Assembly: GCA_001804415.1 (NCBI GenBank)
Contig: MHGA01000006.1
Span: 14,308 to 78,307, forward strand
Direction of reading: 5' to 3'
DNA length: 64,000 nt
Source of the DNA: Candidatus Aquivivens invisus
Lineage (GTDB): Bacteria; Omnitrophota; Gorgyraeia; Aquiviventales; Aquiviventaceae
Positions 3,249 through 58,367 of the stretch are shown piece after piece; the stretch's first letter is position 1, and the number at the start of each line of letters is the position of its first letter. The notes under the pieces were generated by a model that was not told the origin of the DNA, searched no databases, and saw only the letters and a list, made by a program, of their open reading frames with translations. The position numbers and the translations under genes were made by a program.

Positions 3249-4814
3249 TCATCTAACAATCTGTGTAATCGAGGTCTGCTCTTTAGCTATATGCACTTCG
3301 AGAGGTTGCGCGGGTGCCAGGGTGCGCGCGACGAGCGGGCGCGTGGAGAGATCAATCAATCGCACCAGCGGCTTGGGCCAGCATCCCACGATCAACAGTG
3401 CTGCGATCAACACCACATACGGGAGGCGGGCAAACGGGGTGGCGGCGTCTTTCGCGTGGGCGAGGCTCTCGTTGGCGCCTCCGAAGAACACCCCGCGCAC
3501 CATCCGCAGCATGTACACCGAGGTGATCACGATCCCCAGCACCGCCAGCACCGCCTGCAGACGGTACCGATCCCACGACCCGAAGATCACCATCATCTCC
3601 GCCACGAAGTTCGCGAATCCCGGCAGGCCGCTGGACGCCATGGCGGCCATCACCCCGCAGGTGGCGATGAACGGCAGGCGCTTCGCCAGCCCTCCCAGCT
3701 CCGGCAGGGAGCGCGTGTGCGTCTCGTCGTAGATGTGGCCGACCAGCGCGAAGGCGAGCGCCGTCATCACCCCGTGCCCGAACATCAGCAACACCGCACC
3801 GTTGAGCGAGAGCGGAGTGAGCGCACAGATCCCCAGCAGGACGTAGCCCATGTGGCTGGAGGAGGAGTACCCGATGATGAACTTCAAATCTTTCTGGGCC
3901 ATGGCGACCAGCCCGCCGTAGATGATGTTCATCGTGCACAGCCCGGCGATCCACGGCAGCCACGCCTGCGCGCCGAGGGGCAGGAGGTTCAGCGGCAGGC
4001 GGATGATCGCGTAGGAACCCAGCTTCATCAGGACCGCCGCATGCAGCATGCTCACCGCCGACGGAGCCGCGGCGTGTCCGATAGGCGACCAGCTATGCAG
4101 CGGCCACAGCGGCGCGATGACCCCGAAGCCCACCGCCAGCAGGGGAAAGATCCACCACTGCAACCGGGCGTCCAGCGGATGGGCGCGCAGATGCTCCTCC
4201 AGCGCGACCACGTCAAAGGTCTGCGCCCCGCAACTGACGTACAGCCACAAGAGTCCGATCAACGCCAGCACCGCGCCGGAGGTGAGGTAAATCGTCAGCT
4301 TCATCGCGGCGTATTCTTTCGAGAACACCACCCGGCCGCCTTCCTTGGTATCGCTGCCCCAGACGCCGATGAGCGGATACATCGGGATCACCGCCATCTC
4401 GTAGAAGAAGTAGAAGAAGAACAGATCCAGCGACAGGAACACCCCGAACACGCCGGTGATGAGCAGCAGGTAGAAGAGATAGTATTCCTTCACGCGCTCC
4501 TTGATGGCGTACGAGATCAGCACGCCGGCGAAGGCGCAGATCGCATGCAGCAGCACCAGCACGGCGCTGATCCCATCCACCCCGAGGTGAAACCCGACGC
4601 CCAGCGCGGCGATCCACGGCACCTCCACGTGGAACTGATATCCACCGGAGGAGCGGTCGAAATTCGTCACCACCCACAGCGCGGTCAGCAGCGGGATGAA
4701 GGTCGCCCCCACCGCCACCCGCCGGATGAGGCGGATCTCTTGCCGGGGGAGCCACAGCAACAGCATCACGCCCATCGCCGGCGCCAGCAGGATCATCAGC
4801 AGCGGACTCATCAT
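3249..4814 (-). CDS. nuoM: NADH-quinone oxidoreductase subunit M (start ATGATGA overlapping nuoL stop)
   Basis: NuoM-type sequence; ATG at 4814 overlaps TGA of nuoL (4811-4813); the longer ORF to 4931 is rejected as extension. Confidence 0.85.
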   Translation of the reverse strand: MMSPLLMILLAPAMGVMLLLWLPRQEIRLIRRVAVGATFIPLLTALWVVTNFDRSSGGYQFHVEVPWIAALGVGFHLGVDGISAVLVLLHAICAFAGVLISYAIKERVKEYYLFYLLLITGVFGVFLSLDLFFFYFFYEMAVIPMYPLIGVWGSDTKEGGRVVFSKEYAAMKLTIYLTSGAVLALIGLLWLYVSCGAQTFDVVALEEHLRAHPLDARLQWWIFPLLAVGFGVIAPLWPLHSWSPIGHAAAPSAVSMLHAAVLMKLGSYAIIRLPLNLLPLGAQAWLPWIAGLCTMNIIYGGLVAMAQKDLKFIIGYSSSSHMGYVLLGICALTPLSLNGAVLLMFGHGVMTALAFALVGHIYDETHTRSLPELGGLAKRLPFIATCGVMAAMASSGLPGFANFVAEMMVIFGSWDRYRLQAVLAVLGIVITSVYMLRMVRGVFFGGANESLAHAKDAATPFARLPYVVLIAALLIVGCWPKPLVRLIDLSTRPLVARTLAPAQPLEVHIAKEQTSITQIVR

Positions 4815-6760
4815 GGATGGTTCGCCAGATACAGCAACGCGACGACTCCCACAAAAAACACCAACACGTACTGCTGCACCTTCCCGGTTTGGCACAAGCG
4901 CAGCAACCGGCCGGCCGTCTTGGTCGTCCACGCCGTGCCGTTGACCGCCAAGCCGATAATGACGAACCGCTCAAACAGCGCGCAGGCGGAGGCGATGAGG
5001 CGCTGCTGAATCCGATCCACATACCAGGCATACGCGTCGTCGATACGGTAGTGCCGAAGGAGCAGCCGGTAGACCGGGCCGAACGTCTGCGCAATCTTCG
5101 ACGGTGAGATTGAGCGCGTGCCGTAGATCAACCATGCCAGCCCGACGCCGATGGCCACCACCACCAGGGAGGTCCCGGCGATGCCCCAATGCAGCTCGGC
5201 CGCCTGCTCACCCAGAAACGCCGGGATGCCGAGGTAACCGCCGACGATGGACAGCGCCGCCAGCACCGCCAGCGGAACGAGCATGATCGTCGGAGACTCG
5301 TGCGGATGCAATCCGTGGGCGGGCGACCGAGCCGGCACCATCCCTGCTGGCGAGGAAGTGCCGTCAGCCGCAGGGCTGACGGCCTTGCCCACAAACGCCA
5401 CACACCACACCCGCGCCGTGTAGAACGCGGTGAAACCCGCGGTCACCGTCCCCAACCAGTAGAGCGAGGCGTTGTGCTCATGGGCGAGCGCGAGGATGGC
5501 ATCCTTGCTGAAAAAACCGCTCAAGCCCGGCGCGCCGCACAACGCCAGCGCGCCGACGAAAAACGAGAGCGACGTCCATCGCATCGACGTCCACAGTCCC
5601 CCCAGCTCCCAGATGTTCTGCCGGTGGGTGCCGTGGATGACGCTGCCGGCGCTGAGGAACAGCAGCGCCTTGAAAAACGCGTGCGTGGTGAGGTGATACA
5701 TGCCCGCGCCCGCCCCGCCCAACCCCACCGCCATCACCATGTAGCCAAGCTGGCTCAGCGTCGAGTACGCGAGGATGCGCTTCAGGTCCGATTCCACGAT
5801 GGCCAGGCACGCCGAGAGAAACGCCGTCGCGCCACCGACCCACGCGATCACGGTCAAGACGGTGCGCAACTCCTCGAACAGCCAGAAGGTCCGGCAGAGC
5901 ATGTAGACCCCGGCCGCCACCATCGTGGCCGCATGGATGAGCGCGGAGACCGACGTGGGCCCTTCCATCGCATCCGGCAGCCACACGTGCAGCGGAAACT
6001 GCGCCGACTTGCCCAGCACCCCGCAGAACAGCAACAGCCCGATCCCCGTCAGCGCCGTAGGGGACAGCCACCCCAGCTCCATCAGGTGCGGAAGCCGCTG
6101 GTACAGCGTCTGGAACTGCACGCTGCGCTCAGCGGCGATCGGGCTTGAGACGGCCCACAGCCAGACAATCCCCAGCAGGAAGCCGAAGTCCGCGACGCGG
6201 TTGACCATGAACGCTTTCTTGCCGGCCTCAGCGGCGGCGGGTTTCTCGTACCAGTGGCCGATGAGCGCGTAGGAGCAGAACCCCACTAGCTCCCAGCCGA
6301 TGAACAGCTCGATCCAGTTGGTCGCCAGGACGATCGCCAGCATGGAGAAGGCGAACAGCGACAGCAGTCCGAAGTACCGGCTGTAGCCGGCGTCATCCGC
6401 CATGTAGCCGATGGAATAGAGGAAGATGGCACTGCCCACGCCGGTGACCACCAGCGACATGAGCAGGGAGAGCCGGTCGATGAGCACCCCGAACGGAATG
6501 GAGAAGTCCGGCAGCCCGATCCATGTCACCGATAGCTCCAGCGGCAGGGTCAGGCCTCCGCTGCGCGCTTGGACGAACAGCGACAGCGCGCAGGCAAACG
6601 AGAGCAGCAGCCCCCCATTGGCGAGCAGCGCGCTCAACCGCCGTCGGGAGATCCCGAAGAGGAGAATCCCCAGCGCCGAGACGAGCGGGCTGAGCAACAG
6701 GGTCCACGCGCAGAAAACGGCTGAAGGCTGAAGGCTGAAGGCTGAAGGCTGGGCTACCAT
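4811..6760 (-). CDS. nuoL: NADH-quinone oxidoreductase subunit L; 12-aa N-terminal extension encoded by a (GGCTGAA)n heptamer tract
   Basis: 649-aa antiporter-like subunit with long C-terminal helix region; ATG 6760 overlaps nuoK stop. Confidence 0.85.
   Translation of the reverse strand: MVAQPSAFSLQPSAVFCAWTLLLSPLVSALGILLFGISRRRLSALLANGGLLLSFACALSLFVQARSGGLTLPLELSVTWIGLPDFSIPFGVLIDRLSLLMSLVVTGVGSAIFLYSIGYMADDAGYSRYFGLLSLFAFSMLAIVLATNWIELFIGWELVGFCSYALIGHWYEKPAAAEAGKKAFMVNRVADFGFLLGIVWLWAVSSPIAAERSVQFQTLYQRLPHLMELGWLSPTALTGIGLLLFCGVLGKSAQFPLHVWLPDAMEGPTSVSALIHAATMVAAGVYMLCRTFWLFEELRTVLTVIAWVGGATAFLSACLAIVESDLKRILAYSTLSQLGYMVMAVGLGGAGAGMYHLTTHAFFKALLFLSAGSVIHGTHRQNIWELGGLWTSMRWTSLSFFVGALALCGAPGLSGFFSKDAILALAHEHNASLYWLGTVTAGFTAFYTARVWCVAFVGKAVSPAADGTSSPAGMVPARSPAHGLHPHESPTIMLVPLAVLAALSIVGGYLGIPAFLGEQAAELHWGIAGTSLVVVAIGVGLAWLIYGTRSISPSKIAQTFGPVYRLLLRHYRIDDAYAWYVDRIQQRLIASACALFERFVIIGLAVNGTAWTTKTAGRLLRLCQTGKVQQYVLVFFVGVVALLYLANHP
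6718..6752. repeat. Tandem heptanucleotide repeat (GGCTGAA)x4.7 inside the first 15 codons of nuoL
   Basis: ggctgaa repeated 4 times perfectly + ggctggg; read directly. Confidence 0.95.
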
Positions 6761-7654: not shown

Positions 7655-8779
7655 ATGAATCGTGCCCAACTCATCATCGCCGATAGCGAGAAAAACGCCA
7701 ACCTCTACTACGCCACGAGATTCCTGGCGCCCGATCCGTTCATCTTGGTTCAAGCCGACGGCCGCAAGCAGCTGGTCATGAGCGACCTGGAGCTGGATCG
7801 CGCCAAGGCGCAAGCGACGGTGGATGAGGTCCTCTCGTACACCGCCCTGGCCCGACAGGCCAAGCAACGGCTCAGCGGGGAACCGACGATGCTGGATGTC
7901 GTCGATGAGCTCTTGCAGGCGTACGGGGCGAAGGCGATCGAGGTCCCGCTCGATTTCAGCGTCGGGCACGCGGATGGGCTGAGGCAGCGGGGCTATGAGA
8001 TCGTCGCCAAGCCGGAGCCGTTTTACCCGCAGCGACTGCTGAAGTCCGAGGAGGAAATCGCCTTCCTCACCCAGACGCTTCGCGCGACGGAAGACGCGCT
8101 CGAATCGGCCATCGAGCTGATCCGCAACTCCGAGATCAAGGCCGACGGGACGCTGTGGATCGGTGGCAAGCCCCTCACGGTGGAGATGATCCGGAAGGTC
8201 CTGCACATGCAGCTGCTGGAGCGCAACTGCATCGGGCAGCACACGATCATCGCCTGCGGGGCGCAGGCGGTCGATCCGCACAACGAAGGTTCAGGCCCGC
8301 TGAGGGCCAACGAGCCGATCGTGATGGACGTGTTCCCGCAGCACGCCGATACGCGCTACTTCGCCGACATCACGCGCACCATCGTCAAGGGCAAGGCGGC
8401 TCCGAAAGTCCGCAAGATGTTCGACGCGGTGCGCGAGGGGCAGGAGATCGCCTTTCGGATGATCAAAGACGGCGTGGATGGGTCGGTGGTGCATCAAGCG
8501 ATCCTGGCCTCGTTCGAGTCGCTCGGGTTCAAGACGGGGCCGCAGGACGGCCGCATGCAGGGGTTCTTCCACGGGACGGGTCACGGGGTCGGCTTGGAGA
8601 TCCACGAGCCGCCGCGCATCAGCCCCCGCAAGGACATCTTGAGAGCCGGCATGGTGGTGACGGTTGAGCCCGGACTCTACTACATGGATGCCGGCGGGAT
8701 GCGCCTCGAGGACATGGTCGTGGTGACGAGCGACGGGTGTCTGGTGCTGACCCAGGCCCCGAAAATCTTGGAAGTGTAG
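7655..8779 (+). CDS. M24 family Xaa-Pro aminopeptidase / creatinase-type peptidase
   Basis: Creatinase N-domain plus pita-bread fold motifs (HGTGHGVGLEIHEPP, VEPGLY). Confidence 0.8.
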   Translation: MNRAQLIIADSEKNANLYYATRFLAPDPFILVQADGRKQLVMSDLELDRAKAQATVDEVLSYTALARQAKQRLSGEPTMLDVVDELLQAYGAKAIEVPLDFSVGHADGLRQRGYEIVAKPEPFYPQRLLKSEEEIAFLTQTLRATEDALESAIELIRNSEIKADGTLWIGGKPLTVEMIRKVLHMQLLERNCIGQHTIIACGAQAVDPHNEGSGPLRANEPIVMDVFPQHADTRYFADITRTIVKGKAAPKVRKMFDAVREGQEIAFRMIKDGVDGSVVHQAILASFESLGFKTGPQDGRMQGFFHGTGHGVGLEIHEPPRISPRKDILRAGMVVTVEPGLYYMDAGGMRLEDMVVVTSDGCLVLTQAPKILEV

Positions 8780-8783
8780 CGCC

Positions 8784-10403
8784 ATGCCCGAGACGCTCCA
8801 CACCACCGCCTTGACCCCTGAGCCCATCGTCAGGCTCGAGAACTATTTCCGCGAGCCGTACAACCTCGCCGTCGCGGCGGCGCGCACCTGTTACTCCTCC
8901 CAGGTGATCTCGACGGACGATGTGGACCGCGATGACCAAACCCGCGCCCAGCGGGACCGCATCGCGGAGAGCATCTACAAGGCCGGCCATCACACGACGA
9001 TCCAGCACCCCACCTTCCAGTTCGTCCTTGAGCGCGTGTCACGCCACTGCATTTGGTCCTTCCTCCACGCGCATCCTTTTTATAACAGCGAGCAGGTTTC
9101 ACAACGTTTTGTCGAGGTGAAGCCGGAGCATTTTACGATCCCGCCGCTGGAAGACGCCGCCCGGTCGATCTACCTCAAGGCGGTGCGCGCGCAGATGGAC
9201 GCCTACCACCGCCTGTGCGAGCTGGTGGAGCCGACGGTCAACCTGGAGTATCGGCGGATCTTTCCCCATCGCGAGCTGTCGGACAAACGCTGGAAGGGCG
9301 CCATCAAGAAACGCTGCCAGGAGGTGGCGAGGTACGTCTTGCCGGTGGCGACCCACGCGCACCTCTACCACACGATCAGCGGGATTACCCTGCACCGCTA
9401 CTGGCGGCTATGCCGGCAGTTTGACGTCCCGCTGGAGCAGCGCTTCGTCGTGCAGCGAATGGTCGAGGAGGTGTGCCGGGTCGATCCGAAGTTCATGGCC
9501 CTGGCGGAGGATCCGATGCCGATGGAGGAGACGCTGGAGTATCGCGTGTTCCAGGCTCTCCACGCCGGATCCCCGGCCCGCCTCGATGGCCAGAGTCCGG
9601 GGCGGGCAACCAACGGGACGGGCCGAGGCTTTGTCGATGAATTCGACCGGGAGCTCGGTGCGCACACCTCCAGGCTGGTGGATTACAAGGCGCGCGCGCA
9701 AGAGACCCTGGCGCAGGCGGTGCGATCGGTGCTCGGCGTACCCAGAGGACAGCTGTCAGATCTGCAGGCGATCGATCTGGTGCTCAATCCGGCGCGCAAC
9801 CCCTACCTGTCCGACACGCTGACCCTCACGACGGTCAGCAAGCTCTCCCGCGCCCTGGTGCATCCCCACTTTACATTTAAGAAGAAACTGTCGCACACCG
9901 CTGATTCGCAGGACCAGCGCCACCGCATGGTGCCCGCCTCGCGGCCGATCCTGCTGACCCACTTCGTCGCGGATCGACCGGACTACATCACCCCCGTCCT
10001 GATTCGCGCCACCCCGGAAGCTCTCGCCTGCTACGGCGAGGTGATGACCACGGTCTGGCGCGCCATCACCCGGTTGCTCGAGCTAGGGGTGAGCCACGAA
10101 TTCGCGCTGTACCTGCTCCCCAATGCGTTTCCGATCCGGTTTGAAGAGTCGGGCGATTTGCTGCACTTCCATCACAAGTGGGTGCAGCGGCTCTGCTACA
10201 CGGCGCAGGAGGAAATCTGGAACAGCTGTCGCGAAGAGGTGTTGCAGGTGACCGAGCGTTTTCCGGAGATCGGCCGGTACCTCCAAGCGCCGTGCTGGCC
10301 GAGGTCGCAGGCAGGGATTCGTCCGTACTGTCCCGAAGGCGACCGCTTCTGCGGCGTCGCCGTGTGGAAGCTGCCGGTCGAAGAGTACCAACGGCTCATT
10401 TGA
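8784..10403 (+). CDS. Tandem-domain ThyX-like (flavin-dependent thymidylate synthase family) protein, 539 aa
   Basis: Two ThyX-like halves; the first has GHHTTIQH...SRHCIWSFLHAHPF..SQRF (RHR replaced by HAH), the second retains RHRMVPAS. Confidence 0.55.
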   Translation: MPETLHTTALTPEPIVRLENYFREPYNLAVAAARTCYSSQVISTDDVDRDDQTRAQRDRIAESIYKAGHHTTIQHPTFQFVLERVSRHCIWSFLHAHPFYNSEQVSQRFVEVKPEHFTIPPLEDAARSIYLKAVRAQMDAYHRLCELVEPTVNLEYRRIFPHRELSDKRWKGAIKKRCQEVARYVLPVATHAHLYHTISGITLHRYWRLCRQFDVPLEQRFVVQRMVEEVCRVDPKFMALAEDPMPMEETLEYRVFQALHAGSPARLDGQSPGRATNGTGRGFVDEFDRELGAHTSRLVDYKARAQETLAQAVRSVLGVPRGQLSDLQAIDLVLNPARNPYLSDTLTLTTVSKLSRALVHPHFTFKKKLSHTADSQDQRHRMVPASRPILLTHFVADRPDYITPVLIRATPEALACYGEVMTTVWRAITRLLELGVSHEFALYLLPNAFPIRFEESGDLLHFHHKWVQRLCYTAQEEIWNSCREEVLQVTERFPEIGRYLQAPCWPRSQAGIRPYCPEGDRFCGVAVWKLPVEEYQRLI

Positions 10404-10411
10404 AGCAAGCG

Positions 10412-10460
10412 ACAAGGGACAAGGGACAAGGGACAAGGGACAAGGGACAAGGGACAAGGA
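10412..10460. repeat. Tandem heptanucleotide repeat (ACAAGGG)x7 between thyX-like stop and cld-like start
   Basis: Seven consecutive 7-nt units, last one ACAAGGA. Confidence 0.95.
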
Positions 10461-10462
10461 AC

Positions 10463-11209
10463 ATGACCATGCCGATACCGGTCGAGGAAGCCAAGAGCCA
10501 CGCCCCCGCGGTTCAACGGGAGGCCGTGGCTCGGCAGATCGTGGGGTTCTCGTTCTACCGCGTGGATCCGGAGTGGAGGCGGCTGCCGGCTTCGACGAAG
10601 CGCAGGCAGGGCGGGGAGCTGGCCGGTGTCATCACGCGCTACGCCAAGCAGCTGATGGTGCTGACCTATTCGCTCGTCGGGTTGAAGCCCGACGTCGACT
10701 TCTTGATCTGGCGCGTGGGCAACCGGCTTGAGCAGCTGCAGGCGATGTCGGCGGCGGTTCGGCAGACGGCGATGGCCGGGTACCTGTCGATGCCGCACGC
10801 GTATCTGTCGATGACGAAACGGTCCACCTACGTGGATAAGCTCGATCCCGATCACGCGGATGCGCGGCGGTTCATCACGCCGTTTCACAGCAAGTACCTG
10901 TTCGTCTATCCCTTCGTGAAAACCCACGAATGGTATCAGCTCCCGTTCGAACAGCGCCAGGCGATGATGGACGAGCATATCGTCCTGGGGAACACGTACC
11001 CCTCGGTGCGGATCCACACGACCTACGGCTTCGGGCTGGATGATCACGAGTTCGTCCTCGCCTTTGAAACCGACCACCCTCAGGACTTCCTCGATCTCGT
11101 GATGGCGATGCGCGAGAGCAAGGCTCGCCCCTACACCCTGCGGGATACGCCGATCTTCACCTGTGTGGCCAAACCGTTTGATGAGATTCTCAATGAAATC
11201 GGCTGCTGA
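10463..11209 (+). CDS. Chlorite dismutase family protein (Cld-like/HemQ-like), cytoplasmic (no signal peptide)
   Basis: C-terminal half aligns with Nitrospira Cld (YxFVKTxEWYxLxxxxRxxMMxEH, GLDDxxF..FET); ATG right after the heptamer tract. Confidence 0.75.
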   Translation: MTMPIPVEEAKSHAPAVQREAVARQIVGFSFYRVDPEWRRLPASTKRRQGGELAGVITRYAKQLMVLTYSLVGLKPDVDFLIWRVGNRLEQLQAMSAAVRQTAMAGYLSMPHAYLSMTKRSTYVDKLDPDHADARRFITPFHSKYLFVYPFVKTHEWYQLPFEQRQAMMDEHIVLGNTYPSVRIHTTYGFGLDDHEFVLAFETDHPQDFLDLVMAMRESKARPYTLRDTPIFTCVAKPFDEILNEIGC

Positions 11210-11214
11210 ACGGC

Positions 11215-11913
11215 ATGCCCGAGTGTCTCACCGCTGAGGTCACGTACCCGAGCGACGGCCTCACGCTCAGGGGCTTCCTGGCGCGGCCACACGATGAGCA
11301 GCCTCGTCCCGCCGTGGTGGTGATCCACGAATGGTGGGGGCTCAACGACCACATCAAGGATGTCACCCAGCGGTTTGCGAAGGAAGGTTACGTGGCGCTG
11401 GCGCCTGACCTCTACTCCCGTGTGGGTCACAAGGTGACGAAGGACCCCGACGAGGCGGCGAAGCTGATGGAACGCCTGCAATCGCAACACGCGCTCAAAG
11501 ACCTCAACGCGGCCACGCGCTATCTCAAGACGCTATCGTGTGTCGACCCCATCAAGATCGGGGCGGTGGGGTTGGGCATGGGAGGGACGTTCGCCTTGAT
11601 GGTGGCCTCACACAACTCCGATGTCAAAGCCTCGGTGTCGTTTTACGGGCAGATCCCCCCAACCGATAGCCTCAAGTATCTCCTCGCGCCTATCCTCTAT
11701 CTCCACGGGGGGCAGGACGCGTGGATTCCGTCGCGCGAGGCGCAGCGCCTTGCTCAGGGGCTCAAACAATTCGGACGGCCGGGCGAGGTGCAGAGCTACG
11801 CGGATTGCCCGCACGCCTTTTTCAACGACACCCATCCTGAGGTGTATCGTTCGAACGAGGCCAAGGACGCCTGGCAACGGACCGCGCGTTTCCTCGCAAC
11901 CTACCTGAGGTAG
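11215..11913 (+). CDS. Dienelactone hydrolase family protein
   Basis: VVIHEWWGLNDH, alpha/beta hydrolase DLH layout, 232 aa. Confidence 0.75.
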   Translation: MPECLTAEVTYPSDGLTLRGFLARPHDEQPRPAVVVIHEWWGLNDHIKDVTQRFAKEGYVALAPDLYSRVGHKVTKDPDEAAKLMERLQSQHALKDLNAATRYLKTLSCVDPIKIGAVGLGMGGTFALMVASHNSDVKASVSFYGQIPPTDSLKYLLAPILYLHGGQDAWIPSREAQRLAQGLKQFGRPGEVQSYADCPHAFFNDTHPEVYRSNEAKDAWQRTARFLATYLR

Positions 11914-11915
11914 CC

Positions 11916-12395
11916 ATGGATGCCCAAGCGAAGAAGATCGCGTTGAGGAAAATTCCGCACGGCGTCTATATCATCGGGGTGGCGCAGGACGGCCAGCTCA
12001 ACGCCTTCACCGGCACGTGGCTGACGCAGGTGTCCTTCACGCCTCCGTTGGTCGCGCTGGGGATCAGGAAGGACAGCCACTCCTTGTCCATGATCCAGCA
12101 CGCCAAGGTGTTCTCGGTGAACATCCTGGGCAAAGAGCAGAAGCCGCTCGCCGAGCATTTCGTCAAGCCCGCCACCGTCATCGGGGAGAAACTCAAGACC
12201 GTTGCGCACCGCGCCGGCAAGACCGGGGCTCCGCTCTTGGATGACGCGATCGCCTTCGTGGAGTGCGAGGTGCGGGAAATCGCCAATGAGCTCGGCGACC
12301 ATGCGGTGGTCATCGGCGAGGTGGTGGAGGCCGGCGTGCGCAACGACGTGCCGGCCTTGACGCTGATAGACACCGGCTGGCACTACGGTGGTTAA
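11916..12395 (+). CDS. Flavin reductase-like (FMN-binding split-barrel) protein
   Basis: 159 aa, typical flavin reductase domain (YIIGVAQDGQLNAFTGTWLTQVSFTPP). Confidence 0.7.
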   Translation: MDAQAKKIALRKIPHGVYIIGVAQDGQLNAFTGTWLTQVSFTPPLVALGIRKDSHSLSMIQHAKVFSVNILGKEQKPLAEHFVKPATVIGEKLKTVAHRAGKTGAPLLDDAIAFVECEVREIANELGDHAVVIGEVVEAGVRNDVPALTLIDTGWHYGG

Positions 12396-13929
12396 GTCTC
12401 TGGTTCGCTGGGCGAGGTGGGGCTGGCTGGTTCTCCTCCTCGGCTACTGCGCGCTGTTTTTCGCCGAGCCGATCAATCTCACCACCGCCGACCTGGGCCG
12501 GCATCTCAAGAACGGCCAGCTTGTCTGGCAGCATCCGGAGCTTCTCTCCACCAACTTCTACTCCTACACCGAGCCCACCCACCCCTTCCTCAATCACCAT
12601 TGGGCGAGCGGGATGGTGTTCTTTCTCATCTGGAGGCTCGGTGGGTTCGCCGGCCTGCACCTGTTCTTCATCGCGCTGAATCTCGCGGCTCTGGCCATCG
12701 CATGGCGATGCGCCGAGGAACGGGCCGGGGTCGGCGTCGCCGCGTGGCTCTCCATCCTCCTGCTCCCGCTCCTGGCCATTCGGGCTGAGGTTCGTCCCGA
12801 AGCCTTCAGCCTGCTCTTCACGTCGGTCTTCTTTCAGCGGTTGCTTCGATTCAGAGACCAACGGGCCTCACAACGCTCGGTGTGGTGGTTGCCTCTGCTC
12901 GAAGCCGTGTGGGTGAATCTCCACAGCTATTTTTTCCTGGGCCCGGCGCTGATCGCCGCCTTCCTCGTCGACAGCTTGTGCTCGCCCGCACGGAGGGGAC
13001 AGGCGCGCGTGTTGGCCGTCGTGCTGAGCCTGGCGATGCTGGCCACGCTGCTCAATCCCTTTGGGATCACGGGAGCCCTAGTGCCGTTGACGATCTTTCA
13101 GGAGTATGGCTACCGGTTGTTTGAGAACCAGACGATCCCGTTTCTCCTCGCTCGTTTTCAGATGCCCGCCTTGTGGCTCTTTCTCGGCGTGTTTATGGCG
13201 CTGGCCCTCAGCCTGGGGGGCGCGTGGGCTCGGGTGGGGAAATCAGCGGGAGTGGCCGAGACGCTCATCGCCGTTGGCGTCAGCGCCATGGGCTGGGTGG
13301 CCTATCGGAATCTGGCGTTGTTCGGGCTATTGGCCTTGCCGCTGATCGCCTCAGCGCTTGGCGTGCTGCGAGCGGTCCGTCCGCGCAACGACCGGTTCTT
13401 CGCGCTGGCCGCGGTGCTGTCGCTTGCGCTGGTCATCGCCGTCCCGTCGACGGTGTGGTCGCTTCCTCCGGCCTCCGGACGGCGTCTGGGTCTTGAGCCA
13501 GGCGACGGCGAGGCGGCGGCGTTTATCCGGCAGCAGCATCTTGAAGGCCCCATCTTTAATAACTATGACATCGGCGGCTACCTGATCTTCCACCTGTTTC
13601 CTGAGCACCGCGTCTTTGTCGACAACCGGCCGGAGGCGTATTCCGCGGCGTTCTTCAGGGAGCTCTATATCCCGATGCAAGAGGATGACGCGGTGTGGCG
13701 CGAGGCGGAGGCGAGGTTCGGGTTGAACATGATCGTCTTCCACCGGCACGACTTGACGCCGTGGGGGCAGCGCTTCATGATCGCGCGCGTGGACGATCCC
13801 GCGTGGGCCCCGGTCTTTGCGGACCGCGACACCCTCATCCTGCTGAAGCGAAACGTGCGCAACCGATCAGCGATCGACCGCTTTGAAATTCCCCGAAGCG
13901 CGTTTCACGTGACGCGCGCAAGCCCTTGA
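12388..13929 (+). CDS. Large polytopic membrane protein, unknown function (glycosyltransferase-39/ArnT-like topology possible)
   Basis: 513 aa, about 12 hydrophobic helices plus C-terminal soluble domain; GTG start overlapping previous gene. Confidence 0.5.
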   Translation: MVKSLVRWARWGWLVLLLGYCALFFAEPINLTTADLGRHLKNGQLVWQHPELLSTNFYSYTEPTHPFLNHHWASGMVFFLIWRLGGFAGLHLFFIALNLAALAIAWRCAEERAGVGVAAWLSILLLPLLAIRAEVRPEAFSLLFTSVFFQRLLRFRDQRASQRSVWWLPLLEAVWVNLHSYFFLGPALIAAFLVDSLCSPARRGQARVLAVVLSLAMLATLLNPFGITGALVPLTIFQEYGYRLFENQTIPFLLARFQMPALWLFLGVFMALALSLGGAWARVGKSAGVAETLIAVGVSAMGWVAYRNLALFGLLALPLIASALGVLRAVRPRNDRFFALAAVLSLALVIAVPSTVWSLPPASGRRLGLEPGDGEAAAFIRQQHLEGPIFNNYDIGGYLIFHLFPEHRVFVDNRPEAYSAAFFRELYIPMQEDDAVWREAEARFGLNMIVFHRHDLTPWGQRFMIARVDDPAWAPVFADRDTLILLKRNVRNRSAIDRFEIPRSAFHVTRASP

Positions 13930-15284: not shown

Positions 15285-15551
15285 ATGAAGGAGATCACAG
15301 CTCTCGAGCTTCGGAAGCGCTTTGGGGAAGTCATGGAAGATGTTCGTTATCGCAAGGAGCCGTATCTCGTAAAGCGGAACGGACGCCCCATGATCGTGCT
15401 GCTTGATATCGATGCGTATCAGGCCGATGAAAGTCGCCGAAAGGAAGACGTCTTCATTGAAGACTATACCGAGGAGCGTCTTCAGGAATTCTTAGAGGAA
15501 GACCGCCTGGATCCCGGCGTGCAGGCCCGTGTGAATCGGCGTCTGCGATAA
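15285..15551 (+). CDS. Phd/YefM-family antitoxin
   Basis: MKEITALELRKRFGEVMEDV...PYLVKRNGRPMIVLLDIDAYQ typical YefM/Phd N-domain. Confidence 0.8.
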   Translation: MKEITALELRKRFGEVMEDVRYRKEPYLVKRNGRPMIVLLDIDAYQADESRRKEDVFIEDYTEERLQEFLEEDRLDPGVQARVNRRLR

Positions 15552-15983
15552 ATGGTCCGGGTCTTCCTGGATGCGAACGTGTATTTCGCTGGTTGTTATT
15601 CTGCGAAGGGGGCCTCGGCGCTCCTGCTGAAGCTGGCGGTGCGCAAACGCCTCCAAGTGGTGGCATCTCGGCTAGTATTGCGGGAAGCCGAGCGCAACTT
15701 GCATGCGAAAGCCGATCGCAAGGCTCTGCGCGTGTTTCATCGGTTCTTAGAGACTGCCACCCCGCGCATACTTCGAACGCCATCCGCCAAAACGCTCGCT
15801 GCCTACGAGACGATTATTCATCCGAAAGACGTCCCAGTGCTGGCTGCGGCCGTTGAAGCAAAGGTTGACTATCTGGTGACGCTGGACCGCCGGCATTTCT
15901 TTGCCCCCCTCGTCGAGGCCCGAATTAAATCGCCGCGCATTCTGGCCCCCGGCGACTTCCTACAGGAATGGCTGTCGAGATGA
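15552..15983 (+). CDS. PIN-domain (VapC-like) toxin
   Basis: FLDANVY PIN signature, TAAATG junction with antitoxin. Confidence 0.75.
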   Translation: MVRVFLDANVYFAGCYSAKGASALLLKLAVRKRLQVVASRLVLREAERNLHAKADRKALRVFHRFLETATPRILRTPSAKTLAAYETIIHPKDVPVLAAAVEAKVDYLVTLDRRHFFAPLVEARIKSPRILAPGDFLQEWLSR

Positions 15984-18574: not shown

Positions 18575-19702
18575 ATGTCGAGAGCAGAGGCGCTGAAGCT
18601 CTTTGAGGCACGCGATCTCATCGGCCTCGGGCAATTGGCGAACGAGGTCAAGCAAGCCACATGGGGCGATCGCGCCCACTTTGTGATCAACCGCCAGATC
18701 AACCCTACGAACGTCTGCGTCCTGTCCTGCCGGTTCTGCGACTTCGCGACCAAGCGGGGACGCCCTAACGCCTACGAGATGACGATCCAGGACGTCTTAG
18801 ATCGCCTCAGCCCGGAGCTGCGGGAAGTCCACATCGTGCAGGGGCTGCATCCGGACTGGACGTGGGATTTCTACCTGGAGATGCTCCGCGCGATCAAGAC
18901 GAGCTTCCCCCGGATGCAGATCAAAGCCTGGACGGCGGTTGAGATTGACTATTTCTCCAAGAAGTTTCGCCTCTCGGTCGAAGAGGTCCTGGTGCAGATG
19001 AAGGAGGCGGGGCTCTCCGCCTTGCCCGGCGGGGGCGCGGAGGTGTTTTCCGAACGGGTGCGCAAGGCGCTGTTTCCCTTTAAAATCGGCGCGCCGAGGT
19101 GGCTGGAGATTCACCGGATCGCGCATCAGCTGGGCATCCCGACCAACGCGACCTTGCTGTACGGCCACATCGAGACGCGCGAAGAACGCGTGGATCACCT
19201 CCTGAAGCTTCGCGAACTCCAGGATGACACCGGCGGCTTCATGAGCTTCATCCCGTTGGCGTATCAAGTCGGCAAGACGCGCGTGGTCGAGCGCCAGGCG
19301 TCGGCGATCGAGGACCTCAAGACGATGGCGATCTCCAGGCTGCTCCTGGACAACATCCCCCACATCAAAGCCTACTGGGTGACGATGGGTGAAGAGACGG
19401 CGTCGATCGCCCTGAACTTCGGGGCCGATGATCTCGACGGGACGATCGGGGAGGAGCGGATCATGCATGCCGCGGATGCCGCAAGCCCGATTCGGCAGAC
19501 CCGCGAGCGGCTGGTGGAACTCATCCGAGCCTCCGGATGCGTGCCGGTGGAACGCGATGCCCTCTATCACGAGGTCGCGGTGTGCGACCCTTCGACTCGC
19601 GCCACGGCCTCTGGCCGTGGGCTCGCTCAGGATTCCGCCCCACGGGCGCAGGAAGAGGTGCCACGGGCTCTGCCCGTGGGGCTCCACAATGGCCACCGGT
19701 AA
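18575..19702 (+). CDS. Radical SAM menaquinone biosynthesis enzyme, MqnC/MqnE family (paralog 1; alternative start 18524); about 45-aa C-terminal extension encoded by hairpin repeats
   Basis: NPTNVCVLSCRFCDFA cluster motif, CofG/CofH-like fold. Confidence 0.75.
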   Translation: MSRAEALKLFEARDLIGLGQLANEVKQATWGDRAHFVINRQINPTNVCVLSCRFCDFATKRGRPNAYEMTIQDVLDRLSPELREVHIVQGLHPDWTWDFYLEMLRAIKTSFPRMQIKAWTAVEIDYFSKKFRLSVEEVLVQMKEAGLSALPGGGAEVFSERVRKALFPFKIGAPRWLEIHRIAHQLGIPTNATLLYGHIETREERVDHLLKLRELQDDTGGFMSFIPLAYQVGKTRVVERQASAIEDLKTMAISRLLLDNIPHIKAYWVTMGEETASIALNFGADDLDGTIGEERIMHAADAASPIRQTRERLVELIRASGCVPVERDALYHEVAVCDPSTRATASGRGLAQDSAPRAQEEVPRALPVGLHNGHR

Positions 19703-19736
19703 AGTCAGAAGTCAAAAGTCAGAAGTCGGAAGTACA
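19702..19736. repeat. Tandem heptanucleotide repeat (AAGTCAG)x5 (imperfect) between mqnC/E paralog 1 and mqnA
   Basis: aagtcag aagtcaa aagtcag aagtcgg aagtaca, followed by CT-rich run. Confidence 0.9.
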
Positions 19737-19766
19737 CTTCCCTCTTCCCCCTTCGCTCTTCCCCCT

Positions 19767-20522
19767 TTGACGGTGGCCCGCATTCCGTATCTCAACTGCG
19801 CGCCGTTTTTTGCCGGCCTTCCGCTCAAGCCAGGATGGGAGGTGGTCGACGTTGCGCCCAGGCGTTTAGGCCAGATGGCTGAGGAGGGCAAGTTCTTGGC
19901 GGGCGTGATGTCGCTGGCGGATTACCTGCGGTTGCAGGATCGCTTCGAGCGGATCGGGCCGCTGGGGGTGGCGGTGCGGGGACGGGTGGGCAGCGCGCTG
20001 CTGTTTTCGCGCAAACCCCTTCGGCAGCTGGACGGCGCCTGCGTCGCGGTGACGGACGAAACGTCGACGACCGCCCTGTTGCTTCGCGTGATCCTGGAAC
20101 AGCGTTACCACCTGACGGTTCGACTCGCGCCGCACGCCCACCCGACCCAGCAGGATGCTGACGCGGTGCTGCTGATCGGCGATGAGGCCTTGCGGTTTGG
20201 CAGCGTCAACCGGCTCTATCCGTTTGAGATTGATGTCGCCTTTGAATGGTGGTTGTGGCAGCATCTGCCCTGCGTCTTCGCCGTGTGGGCGATCCGCGCG
20301 GACGCCGGCGCGAGCACCAAGCGGGAGGTGAGCGAAGCCCTCCAGCGCACCCTGGCGGTCAACCTGCGTCGCCTCGATGAGCTCGTCATCCAACCGGCTG
20401 CCTCCCTGCACGTTCCGGCCGAGGACCTCACGATGTATCTGAGCCGGTTCATCTATCGTCTCAGCGCCGAGGAGGAGCGCGCCATCCAGCGCTTCGCCCA
20501 ACTGTCCCAATCCATGGCATGA
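19767..20522 (+). CDS. mqnA: Chorismate dehydratase MqnA (start uncertain: TTG 19767/GTG 19773, or ATG 19689 if heptamer tract is translated)
   Basis: RIPYLNCAPF MqnA signature, PF02621-type fold. Confidence 0.75.
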   Translation: MTVARIPYLNCAPFFAGLPLKPGWEVVDVAPRRLGQMAEEGKFLAGVMSLADYLRLQDRFERIGPLGVAVRGRVGSALLFSRKPLRQLDGACVAVTDETSTTALLLRVILEQRYHLTVRLAPHAHPTQQDADAVLLIGDEALRFGSVNRLYPFEIDVAFEWWLWQHLPCVFAVWAIRADAGASTKREVSEALQRTLAVNLRRLDELVIQPAASLHVPAEDLTMYLSRFIYRLSAEEERAIQRFAQLSQSMA

Positions 20523-45487: not shown

Positions 45488-45492
45488 AGCGG

Positions 45493-45559
45493 CGACAAGC
45501 GACACGCGACAAGCGACAAGAAGAGAATCATGTCACTTGTCCCTTGTCACTTGTCACTC
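45493..45559. repeat. Inverted arrays of heptamers: (CGACAAG)x4, 10-nt spacer, (CTTGTCA/TGTCACT)x4; long hairpin between M15 peptidase stop and permease start
   Basis: Read directly; right arm supplies the last codons and stop of the peptidase. Confidence 0.9.
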
Positions 45560-46419
45560 TGTTCAAAGTGCCAATGCCACGGCTCGAACGCCGTGTTGTG
45601 CGGATTATCGCGGGGGTACGACAGCACGAATCCAAACTCGTGCGCATGGTGCGCAAGCCACTGGTATTCCGGGAGGGCTTCGAACGCCTCAGGGTTGTCC
45701 TCGCCATTGATGCCCTCCTCGTTGATGAAATCGACGGCTTGGCGGGGAGGGTAGCCGTGCTCGCTGTGTCCCGGCAAGGCGACGAAACGGTTGGTCTCGC
45801 GGATGGAATGGTCGTGCTTCGGCAGATAGAAGAGGAACAAATACAGCTGATAAGCCGGCGAGCGATAGCCGGACTCAACCAGGAGGCGCTTGCCGAGGTC
45901 GTGCGCCATGGCCTCCATCATGGCCTCGTAGGCCAGCATGGCTTCCCGAGGCAGAACCTGGGCGTCCAGCAAGATCGGTTGGCCTTCCTTGAGGTATTCC
46001 TGGGGACCCACCGGCACCACGTCGGGCGGTTCGCTCAACTCCCCGAAATAGTGGGAGGTTGCGCCGAGATCGGTTCCGCGCAAGGCGCGGACGGCATCGA
46101 GGAACGCGCGCTGCTCCTCGGTGAGGGGTTGGTACAGCTCCTCCCAGGTGAGCAGGTTGGCCGTGCCGGATTGCTTGTGGGAACTGATGAGCGGATCGAG
46201 GCGTTCAAGGACCGCCTGGAGCTGCGCGGTCTCTTCAGGATCCAGACGATCGACGTGGAGGGCGAGAGCCGACGCGGCAACACACAGCAGCCCGACCGTT
46301 GCCAGAACGCCGGCGAGGAACGGTCGGGCTGCGCGCGCGTGCACGGCGAGAATTACCGTCTCTTCGATGACAATTCGTCGACCACGCCGTTGAACCAGCG
46401 CCCCGCCTGATCCTTGCAT
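45547..46419 (-). CDS. D-alanyl-D-alanine carboxypeptidase, VanY/peptidase M15B family
   Basis: ESGYRSP and LPGHSEHGYPPRQAVD motifs; signal peptide. Confidence 0.75.
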   Translation of the reverse strand: MQGSGGALVQRRGRRIVIEETVILAVHARAARPFLAGVLATVGLLCVAASALALHVDRLDPEETAQLQAVLERLDPLISSHKQSGTANLLTWEELYQPLTEEQRAFLDAVRALRGTDLGATSHYFGELSEPPDVVPVGPQEYLKEGQPILLDAQVLPREAMLAYEAMMEAMAHDLGKRLLVESGYRSPAYQLYLFLFYLPKHDHSIRETNRFVALPGHSEHGYPPRQAVDFINEEGINGEDNPEAFEALPEYQWLAHHAHEFGFVLSYPRDNPHNTAFEPWHWHFEQSDK

Positions 46420-57348: not shown

Positions 57349-58221
57349 ATGAAACGGGTGTTGGTCGTCTACAAGAAAAGCGCCTATCAGCTCCACGTGG
57401 TGGAGCGGAAGGATCCGTGGCTGAGGCGGCTGCTGCGAGCGAGTCACCCCGATGCCCTCGACTGGCTCGCGGCCCACCGCGTGCAACAACGCACCCTCGA
57501 TGCCGTGGTGCGCAGCCTGCGCAGCCTCGGCGTGCGGGAGACCCTGGTCTATCGCGAGCGCCTTCGGCCCGCCACCGGCTACGATCTGGTGCTGAGTGTG
57601 GGAGGCGACGGGACGGTGCTGCAGGCCTCCCACTTCATGAAGGACACGCCGCTCCTGGGCGTGAACTCAGATCCGACGCGCAGTGAGGCCGTGTTCTGCG
57701 CGGCCACCGCCTCGGACGTCCATCGAGTCGTGCGGGACGCGTTGGAGGGCCGGCTGCCCGCGCTCTTGCTCTACCGCTTGGCCGTTGCGCTCAACGGCCG
57801 GCGGCTGGGTCCGTTAGCGCTCAATGACGTGCTGATCGCCCATGAGGATCCCGCCACGATGAGCCGCTATCGCCTGCGGCTCGGCGCCCGGTGTGAAGAT
57901 CACAAGAGTTCAGGATTGTGGGTGGCCACCGCCGCGGGCTCCAGCAGCGCGATGGCCGCGGCGGGAGGAAGGCGCCTGCCCTGGGGGGCCAAGCGGTTTC
58001 AGTACCGGCCTCGCGAGCTGTACCAGGGGCGCTTGACCCGTTGTCGCCTGACAGGCGGGCAGCTTTCGCCCCCACGGTGTCTTGAGTTGGTCTGGTTGAT
58101 GCGGGAGGGTGCGGTCTTTCTCGACGGGCCGCATCTCAAACACCGACTGCGATTCGGGGATCGGGTGACGGTGTCGCTCTCGCCGCAACATCCATTCCGC
58201 GTGCTGGGCTTACGCCGATGA
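57349..58221 (+). CDS. nadK: NAD kinase
   Basis: GGDGT motif, NAD kinase fold. Confidence 0.8.
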   Translation: MKRVLVVYKKSAYQLHVVERKDPWLRRLLRASHPDALDWLAAHRVQQRTLDAVVRSLRSLGVRETLVYRERLRPATGYDLVLSVGGDGTVLQASHFMKDTPLLGVNSDPTRSEAVFCAATASDVHRVVRDALEGRLPALLLYRLAVALNGRRLGPLALNDVLIAHEDPATMSRYRLRLGARCEDHKSSGLWVATAAGSSSAMAAAGGRRLPWGAKRFQYRPRELYQGRLTRCRLTGGQLSPPRCLELVWLMREGAVFLDGPHLKHRLRFGDRVTVSLSPQHPFRVLGLRR

Positions 58222-58228
58222 GACAGAG

Positions 58229-58336
58229 CGACAAGCGACAAGCGACAGGTAACAAGTCGAACAGGCCTACTCGAGGGCAGCTTCCTCTGTTGTGGTGTTG
58301 CCTTGTCGCTTGTACCTTGTCGCTTGTCCCTGTCCT
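58229..58336. repeat. Inverted arrays of heptamers (CGACAAG)x3-5 ... 37-nt spacer ... (CTTGTCG/CTTGTMC)x5 between nadK and memo-ammecr1
   Basis: Read directly; ATG 58218 (overlapping nadK TGA) is in frame through the array with the downstream gene. Confidence 0.9.
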
Positions 58337-58367
58337 TGAGGTCACGGCGGAGCCGCGAAGCGCCCGC

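Follow-up and report, generated by a model that had tools for sequence, protein, structure and literature searches.

A length-variable heptanucleotide array between thyX-like and cld-like genes of an apparently Omnitrophota-related bacterium, probably of recent slippage origin

The window analysed here, a 64,000-nucleotide stretch of contig MHGA01000006.1 from Candidatus Aquivivens invisus, carries a perfect array of seven-nucleotide units in the spacer between a thyX-like gene and a cld-like gene. The sequence relationships of these genes suggest that the host is an uncultivated high-GC bacterium related to metagenome-assembled genomes (MAGs) labelled 'Omnitrophica WOR_2'. The locus has the following parts.

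8784-10403, plus strand: thyX-like gene, the upstream cistron, 539 aa, stop codon TGA at 10401-10403, two stretches matching Pfam Thy1.
10404-10410, plus strand: degenerate leading unit AGCAAGC, which in the phase of the repeat-finder call (CAAGCGA) is a GCGACAA-type unit as at the 45.5 and 58.2 kb arrays.
10411-10459, plus strand: perfect heptanucleotide array (GACAAGG)x7, 49 nt, from the direct sequence and a period scan.
10460-10465, plus strand: AAC linker and the start codon ATG (10463-10465) of the cld-like gene, invariant in all alleles.
10463-11209, plus strand: cld-like gene, the downstream cistron, 248 aa, chlorite-dismutase family (HemQ/ChdC-like), matching Pfam Chlor_dismutase.
7655-13929, plus strand: six-gene co-directional cluster containing both genes, from gene calls on identical public contigs.

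Read on the plus strand of the window, positions 10401-10465 are TGA AGCAAGC (GACAAGG)x7 AAC ATG. The perfect array begins 7 nt past the thyX stop codon, has the same orientation as both genes and ends 3 nt upstream of the cld ATG, so that it makes up 49 of the 59 nt between stop and start. An earlier note on this DNA had claimed a perfect 49-nt heptamer run nearly filling the thyX/cld gap, and the run is indeed present at 10411-10459. The same letters can be read in other phases. As ACAAGGG they form six perfect units (10412-10453) followed by ACAAGGA, and as GGGACAA they present six GGG tracts (10416-18, 10423-25, 10430-32, 10437-39, 10444-46 and 10451-53) with ACAA loops between them. Tandem Repeats Finder (TRF) called the repeat at 10406-10463 with period 7, 8.3 copies, 96% matches and a score of 102. 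This copy number is higher than the seven perfect units because a degenerate CAAGCGA lies before the array and CAAGGAA after it. Given a per-position match probability of about 0.27 from the base composition of the window, 42 successive matches at lag 7 have a probability of about 1e-24 per site, which excludes a chance origin of the array. Perfect arrays of at least three copies occur in the window for period 7 and for none of the other periods between 5 and 12.

The length of the array varies within the species. Same-species contigs were retrieved by exact-protein look-ups of neighbouring genes, and came from four NCBI MAGs (GCA_001805685.1, GCA_001805925.1, GCA_003528865.1 and GCA_003508135.1) and from JGI and ENA groundwater metagenomes. 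A scan of metagenome contigs with the Cld protein returned other species only (at most 83% identity). Eighteen distinct same-species contigs, the window included, span the junction, and they carry these forms.

6-unit allele: 14 contigs.
5-unit allele: 1 contig, L180 (ERZ27254842).
7-unit allele: 1 contig, the window.
Second 7-unit form, AGCAAGC GACAAGC (GACAAGG)x6: 1 contig, L184 (ERZ27254750).
Array containing NN: 1 contig, L187 (DOGU01000087.1), region of position 4655, GGGACNNGGACAAGG.

The comparison with related genomes that the earlier note had proposed therefore reveals alleles of 5, 6 and 7 units and a second 7-unit form. The latter is the expected product of a 7-nt AAGCGAC duplication at the 5' boundary of the array. 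The undetermined bases in L187 suggest heterogeneous array lengths in the data given to the assembler or consensus caller. The flanks of the array (599 and 712 nt, 1,311 nt together) showed no single-nucleotide polymorphism (SNP) across the 15 contigs compared, and over 17.1 kb the contig L164 differs from the window by two SNPs and a single 7-nt indel in the array. The presence of length alleles on SNP-free flanks indicates that array length changes much faster than the flanks are substituted. The allele set implies three or more separate events. All alleles agree in the last two units, the AAC linker and the ATG, and gain or loss took place inside the array or at its 5' edge. Alleles of 5, 6 and 7 units have stop-to-start distances of 45, 52 and 59 nt and contain 4, 5 and 6 GGG tracts, respectively. 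Shorter or imperfect arrays elsewhere in the window (at 6719, 19702/19737, 45492/45531 and 58222/58301) are invariant in 2-10 contigs each, as would be expected if slippage were more frequent in arrays with more perfect units.

The array lies outside the cld-like ORF. All gene callers placed the cld start at 10463 or 10469. The start ATGAC(C) encodes Met-Thr, and the homologous start is kept in relatives. Two open reading frames (ORFs) cross the array, 10178-11209 on the plus strand and 10083-10457 on the minus strand. The unit has no stop codon in any frame, which explains ORFs through the array on both strands, and the plus-strand frame is open because the unit has no T. The plus-strand ORF starts with a GTG inside thyX, and no ATG in the cld frame precedes 10463, as the earlier note had stated. 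Its remark that the array is in frame with the cld-like gene is correct for the letters of the window, where the plus-strand frame is open through the array into cld, but this is incidental, because the 6- and 5-unit alleles shift the frame by 7 and 14 nt, and the allele of 6 units is nevertheless the prevalent one.

The junction of thyX and cld in related genomes points to the origin of the spacer. The closest relatives in genome collections have Cld proteins 64-89% identical to that of the window, a GC content of 59-68% and an origin in groundwater and similar habitats, and they are labelled Candidatus Omnitrophota, Omnitrophica WOR_2 or 'Planctomycetales' MAGs. Adjacency of thyX and cld is kept in 47 fetched loci, and the commonest junction among them is an overlapping stop/start, TGATG or TAATG. 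According to a neighbour-joining tree built from the C-terminus of ThyX and Cld, the sisters of the window are L003 and L004, with the junctions TGAcATG and TAGtccATG, and the next groups out have TAATG, TAGATG and TGATG. These comparisons show an overlapping or abutting stop/start as the ancestral junction of the clade. The sisters have no repeat spacer, which indicates that the 59-nt spacer is a recent, lineage-specific insertion into a junction that had been abutting or translationally coupled. Other lineages carry other heptamer units at the same junction, as follows.

L008: TAGTGAA x4.
L090: (T/C)AGTGA(T/C) x5.
L091: TGAGTGA / TCAGTGA.
L096: TAAGCAG x4.
L108: GAGTGAC x4.
L009: GTGATGA x2.
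L010: TGTGTAA x4 with inverted copies.

The thyX-cld junction of L113 likewise carries a different heptamer unit. These arrays of other lineages often begin on the thyX stop codon itself. Some of the relatives' thyX-cld spacers contain palindromic or inverted structures based on heptamers (L089 9122-9180, L010 9819-9990 and L021 9767-9990). L089, for instance, has GGTACCAGGTACCGG ... CGGTACCTGGTACC, and L010 combines TGTGTAA arrays with TTACACA copies. A separate observation was made in L004, whose Cld is 88% identical to that of the window. At 922-972 of this locus an in-frame ATG (922) is followed by an ACGA(A/G)AT x4.9 array (928-961), and no alternative start codon precedes the conserved part of Cld. 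The heptamer array of L004 thus appears to encode part of the Cld N-terminus, and a one-unit change would be predicted to frameshift the gene.

Arrays of period 7 are common in the clade. In a census of loci around one gene neighbourhood, 21 period-7 arrays were found in 546 kb of clade loci, and the 1.5 Mb of loci that the same query returned from other phyla contained 5, which corresponds to about 38 and about 3 per Mb, respectively. The clade loci also contain 18 arrays of period 14 or 21, mostly heptamer-based. About 20 of 26 array loci begin no more than about 11 nt from the stop codon of an upstream co-directional gene, and such arrays practically constitute the spacer. In five relatives the spacer between nuoJ and nuoK contains heptamer arrays, whose units are unrelated (GAAGTCG + AAATCCA, ATTGCGG, TGATGGG, GGTGACA and CGTGTCACGTGAAA). 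The arrays at the nuo junctions are located as follows.

nuoJ-nuoK: L003 4431-4507; L010 5354-5392; L011 6465-6497; L016 603-632; L021 6253-6284.
nuoK-nuoL: window 6719-6751 (GGCTGAA); L003 4043-4114.

Judged by the loci sampled, the cld array is one case of a clade-wide habit, in which the short gaps separating co-directional genes are occupied by period-7 arrays. We also considered whether the arrays have a consistent purine or G bias in one strand relative to transcription, and such a bias was not established.

Four further sites in the window carry heptamer arrays.

6719-6751, minus strand: GGCTGAA x4.7, perfect, unrelated unit, at the nuoK/nuoL junction; invariant in 9 contigs.
19702-19767, plus strand: AAGTCAG x4.6 and CTTCCCC-type x4.4, from the stop codon of the 18575-19702 gene to the start of the next gene.
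45492-45558, minus strand: inverted pair of GCGACAA x4 and TGTCACT x4, forming a hairpin between minus-strand VanY-like and amino-acid permease genes.
58222-58335, plus strand: inverted pair of GCGACAA x3.6, then CCTTGTC/GCTTGTA, directly after the stop codon of an NAD-kinase-like gene and upstream of a Memo/AMMECR1 gene.

The earlier note had proposed that the unit at cld shares a core with the arrays at 45.5 and 58.2 kb, and a GACAAG core is indeed common to all three. The units are GCGACAA, with the reverse complement AGTGACA/AGGGACA, at 45.5 kb and GCGACAA, with the reverse complement GACAAGG/TACAAGC, at 58.2 kb. Only the cld array is a G-tract array among those in the 64 kb, and the related arrays use GCGACAA or GTGACAA. 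The pair at 45.5 kb (45488-45562) folds with -43.9 kcal/mol (z -7.2) on the sense strand and with -31.5 kcal/mol on the antisense strand. This difference of 12 kcal/mol in favour of the sense strand is due to G-U pairs, and the preference suggests structure at the RNA level. The arrays at 45.5 kb are invariant in 7 contigs. The pair at 58.2 kb (58219-58340) folds with -55.4 kcal/mol (z -5.0) and is invariant in 10 contigs. The array at 6719-6751 corresponds to residues 4-14 of a called 649-aa NuoL ORF, and NuoL models align from residue 18 onwards. Either these 33 nt are an in-frame heptamer array that is translated, or they form a spacer ahead of a start codon further downstream.

The cluster to which thyX and cld belong has the order M24 peptidase, thyX, cld-like gene, dienelactone hydrolase, flavin reductase and a 513-aa protein. 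The genes are separated by successive gaps of 4, 59, 5 and 2 nt, the last two overlap by 8 nt, and the array is the sole sizeable spacer. From this arrangement we infer that the six genes form an operon and that transcription runs through the array, making it an intercistronic linker on a polycistronic mRNA. Many gene junctions of the window are overlaps or gaps of at most 5 nt (29 called gene starts). The ThyX homologue at 8784-10403, with its two Thy1 matches, is about twice the usual length, and this tandem-domain form is conserved across the clade. Further downstream, at the junction of the dienelactone hydrolase and flavin reductase genes, about 47 substitutions in about 206 nt (11749-11954) separate the window from the otherwise near-identical contig Ga0103681_1001153 (L163). 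The patch resembles a short tract of recombination. At 15285-15983, a UbiA-UbiX-UbiD-MqnA/CofH-like cluster of the menaquinone/futalosine type is interrupted by an inserted PhdYeFM antitoxin / PIN toxin pair.

Signals for transcription and translation were searched for around the array. No sigma-70-like promoter and no intrinsic terminator motif was found at the thyX/cld junction, and the only strong promoter-like match lies at 7642-7614 (minus strand) in the divergent region between nuoJ and the M24 peptidase gene. A search of Rfam with 9800-11000 returned no family match. There is no inverted partner of the cld array within 400 nt, and the array is unpaired in the centroid structure of a 211-nt fold; folded alone it reaches -3.6 kcal/mol (z -1.4). 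A hairpin like that of the hmw genes of Haemophilus influenzae was rejected for the cld array on these grounds. The earlier note had supposed that unit number could alter the spacing between a promoter or a Shine-Dalgarno sequence and the start codon. Neither effect is supported. No promoter-like site is present, and 49 nt is too long for a -35/-10 spacer. The array ends 3 nt before the ATG and its 3' units are invariant; with the last two units, AAC and ATG unchanged, the AAGG/AAGGA within the array keeps its distance to the start codon. The array as supplier of a Shine-Dalgarno sequence was also considered. The last AAGGA is only 2 nt from the ATG, and the penultimate AAGG is a 4-nt match. 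This reading is weakened because such motifs are rare in the window, where about 5 of 29 called genes only have a Shine-Dalgarno-like motif at -13 to -6. ViennaRNA with G-quadruplex energies predicts that arrays of at least 5 units form a three-layer G-quadruplex (G4; -8.4 kcal/mol for the isolated array) and that those of 4 or fewer do not. All observed alleles have at least 5 units and at least 4 GGG tracts. The G4 potential was rejected as a cause of the clade-wide excess of period 7, most arrays being without G-tracts.

Our data are best explained, with moderate confidence, by a hypermutable heptanucleotide simple sequence repeat (SSR), (GACAAGG)n/(GGGACAA)n, that was born recently by slippage between the thyX-like and cld-like cistrons and probably serves as a transcribed, near-neutral or mildly tuning linker. 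Slipped-strand amplification would have opened an abutting stop/start into a spacer of 45-59 nt that is nearly all repeat. On the mRNA the array would be a purine-rich linker with no canonical secondary structure and with a predicted capacity to form a G4, and it would replace translational coupling by independent initiation at the cld ATG. Gain or loss of units would alter linker length and the number of G-tracts and leave the start-codon context as it is. Since this context is unchanged, the polymorphism is probably near-neutral and might at most tune cld translation mildly, rather than act as an on/off switch.

Several points weigh against this explanation. Arrays recur at the same junctions, thyX-cld and nuoJ-nuoK, in several species, and a cyclic 6-mer is common to 3 of the 5 array loci in 64 kb, which chance would rarely produce (P ~0.002). 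Local slippage alone does not obviously explain the junction recurrence or the shared GACAAG core, which hints at selection or at a templated or dispersal process. That all alleles keep at least 4 GGG tracts would also fit selection for a G-quadruplex. Because some contigs were re-assembled from the same or related Rifle-type groundwater samples, there are fewer independent populations than contigs, and the number of tandem units can be miscounted by short-read assemblers. The explanation further relies on inference where it takes the array to be transcribed, the cluster to be an operon and the length variation to be neutral.

Regulation by the array is possible, either through a G4 or through linker-length tuning of cld translation. 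One form of this idea, which is rather unlikely in our judgement, is that (GGGACAA)n forms a three-layer G4 in the mRNA or in non-template DNA, directly before the cld start codon, and represses or tunes the translation or transcription of cld. The number of units would then set the alternative G4 registers and the freedom of the tract nearest to the start codon. The sequence fits G3N4G3N4G3N4G3, and the alleles of 5, 6 and 7 units, never fewer, all reach the predicted threshold of 5 units. The analogous repeats GGGAATC and GGGGA(C/T)T form G4s in vitro and occupy the same kind of position, and repression of translation by G4s placed at ribosome-binding sites in Escherichia coli was reported by the same laboratory (PMC4692102). 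However, the G4 at cld is a prediction of an energy model only, and Rehm et al. found no regulatory role for their repeats (PMC4692102). The sister species have no spacer, so cld needs no such element, and G-tract repeats are a minority among the heptamer arrays of the clade and of the window. With only three length classes sampled, the minimum of four tracts may be a coincidence. A broader version holds that the arrays, far from being debris of mutation, are selected, clade-wide intercistronic control elements, installed repeatedly at thyX-cld, nuoJ-nuoK and nuoK-nuoL with fast turnover of units, and that the cld array is a rheostat of G4 formation or ribosome access whose 5-7 units set the ThyX:Cld ratio in groundwater populations. 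We give this version little weight. A classical contingency locus, in which changes in unit number switch cld or thyX-cld on and off or stepwise through promoter geometry, reading frame or hmw-like processing of the 5' untranslated region (5'-UTR), would agree with the hypermutability of the repeat, its polymorphism in nature and its position directly upstream of a start codon, and a transcribed heptamer SSR acting through the 5'-UTR is a precedent (PMC12721329). Such a switch is nonetheless unlikely, and we consider the contingency locus quite improbable: the array belongs to neither ORF, has no promoter-like hexamers beside it and could not be a -35/-10 spacer, the context from any Shine-Dalgarno-like motif to the ATG is the same in all alleles, and a complementary arm for a long hairpin of the hmw type is missing. 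The genes concerned have housekeeping functions (thymidylate synthesis and a heme-related Cld-family protein) and do not encode surface structures, and Rehm et al. argue likewise for heptamers associated with metabolic genes (PMC4692102).

Two other explanations have still less in their favour. The GACAAG repeats might be binding sites for a CsrA-like, cold-shock-domain or S1-like protein and define a small post-transcriptional regulon. This seems very doubtful to us, although the core occurs at 3 of 5 array loci, the leading unit at cld is of the GCGACAA type and the window contains a cold-shock-domain gene at about 61.5 kb. The last unit, ACAAGGA, resembles the GGA-centred consensus of CsrA. 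A mere 3 nt separate the array from the start codon, a position comparable to that of the TAACTGA repeats in Beggiatoaceae (PMC4679880). Against this, the core is present in both orientations at 45.5 and 58.2 kb in inverted pairs that form hairpins, and this favours a structured RNA over a single-strand binding site. Relatives have units of unrelated sequence at the thyX-cld junction, GACAAGN x3 was found in same-species loci only and in none of the other species' loci (201 loci), and no candidate binder was identified. Finally, the array or its lengths might be an assembly error, or the array might be coding, as an extension of Cld or as part of a minus-strand ORF. One MAG has NN inside the array (L187) and ORFs run through it on both strands, yet an artefact or mis-annotation is hardly credible. 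The array is present in all 18 same-species contigs, which come from JGI, ENA and NCBI and from different assemblers, and its 49 nt are shorter than the reads and than the k-mers of 127-141 in the assemblies named k127 or k141, to which several contigs belong. Both a coding N-terminal extension and a minus-strand ORF were rejected, because 7-nt differences between alleles would put any ORF out of frame, and the genes on either side are intact; the callers' start at 10463 or 10469 and the conserved Met-Thr start also speak against a longer Cld.

The repeat at this junction is a clean natural case of microsatellite birth and hypermutation in a bacterium, in which the ancestral overlap, the derived repeat spacer of 45-59 nt and the length alleles on a SNP-free background can all be seen in public metagenomes. 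It extends the poorly understood excess of 7-nt repeats in bacteria to an uncultivated candidate phylum, where the same operon junctions have been struck repeatedly in different species. For practical work, the arrays are usable as strain-level markers for these MAGs, and they are a source of assembly ambiguity and of mis-called start codons. If the arrays are functional, through G4s or linker-length tuning in operons, the locus would be a simple test system.

Repeats between genes are known in several forms. The REP (repetitive extragenic palindromic) and BIME (bacterial interspersed mosaic element) sequences of enterobacteria are short repeats that accumulate between co-directional genes of operons, but they have palindromic units and are not tandem heptamers. 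Their hairpins can be likened to the inverted-pair hairpins at 45.5 and 58.2 kb, whereas the cld array has no palindromic partner. Cyanobacteria have short tandemly repeated repetitive (STRR) heptamers, of which several unit families are dispersed in the non-coding DNA of one genome; their units and phylum differ from those studied here. Heptanucleotides of Calothrix are mentioned by Rehm et al. (PMC4692102). Our literature search found no paper linking Omnitrophota to heptamer repeats. A 2025 tree-of-life survey of short tandem repeats (STRs) described a subset of 6-9 bp STRs enriched in prokaryotic phyla, and it mentions neither heptamers nor Omnitrophota.

The (ATCTTTC)n repeats of hmw1A/hmw2A in H. 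influenzae are transcribed 5'-UTR SSRs that regulate through a hairpin and RNase III; they pair with a G-rich arm, the long hairpin is cut by RNase III, and a surface adhesin is controlled (PMC12721329). The cld array is likewise a heptanucleotide SSR upstream of a start codon, presumably transcribed and polymorphic in unit number. Unlike the hmw repeats, it has no complementary arm, lies between housekeeping genes and has only 5-7 units. It shows neither the switch placement nor the association with a surface or host-interaction gene that define a contingency locus. TAACTGA heptamers lie directly upstream of start codons in Shine-Dalgarno-poor genomes of Beggiatoaceae (MacGregor 2015, PMC4679880). 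Their hosts are marine Beggiatoaceae, cyanobacteria and Bacteroidetes; some 169 loci carry 2-6 copies each, and a regulatory network was hypothesised for them (PMC4679880). The cld array resembles them as a direct heptamer repeat in forward orientation a few nucleotides from a start codon, where a canonical ribosome-binding site would otherwise stand, in a Shine-Dalgarno-poor genome and next to housekeeping, within-operon genes. The difference is that one fixed unit is used there, whereas GACAAGG is found at cld and many units are found in the clade.

The cld array has all those features of the long simple sequence repeat (LSSR) class that could be tested, namely a perfect head-to-tail unit, a length beyond chance, a lineage-wide excess of period 7 that is mainly noncoding, and polymorphism in unit number. 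As summarised in two later papers, heptanucleotides are the most abundant LSSRs of 5-11 nt in many large, high-GC genomes of non-pathogens, and polymerase slippage was suggested as their cause (Mrazek 2007 per PMC4679880, PMC4692102). The LSSRs of Mrazek, Guo and Shah (2007), as they are described there, agree with our array in the perfect long repeat, the dominance of period 7, the high-GC environmental genome, the intergenic position and the slippage polymorphism. By the same summaries, the candidate phylum was not included in that survey. Our case further differs from the LSSRs in these accounts in that the array can be placed in time, as younger than the divergence from the sister species, and in that the ancestral overlapping stop/start is still visible.

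The closest described class is that of the G-rich heptamers of Rehm et al. (2015), with which the cld array shares architecture and position but not the unit. GGGAATC in Xanthomonas and GGGGA(C/T)T in Nostoc form G4s in vitro (PMC4692102). These repeats lie mostly between aligned ORFs, at most 50 bp from a stop codon, differ in unit number among close relatives, are found as inverted pairs too, stand beside metabolic genes and have no identified function (PMC4692102). The cld array differs in its unit, which is GGGACAA and not the GGGNATC or GGGGA(C/T)T consensus, and its G4 is predicted only. The window genome and the clade also have other heptamer arrays with unrelated units that are not G-rich, and the host is Omnitrophota-like. 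Both have a unit of G3 and a 4-nt loop, at least 4 tracts, a high-GC non-pathogenic host and a varying number of units, together with inverted pairs at other loci, metabolic neighbours and no demonstrated function.

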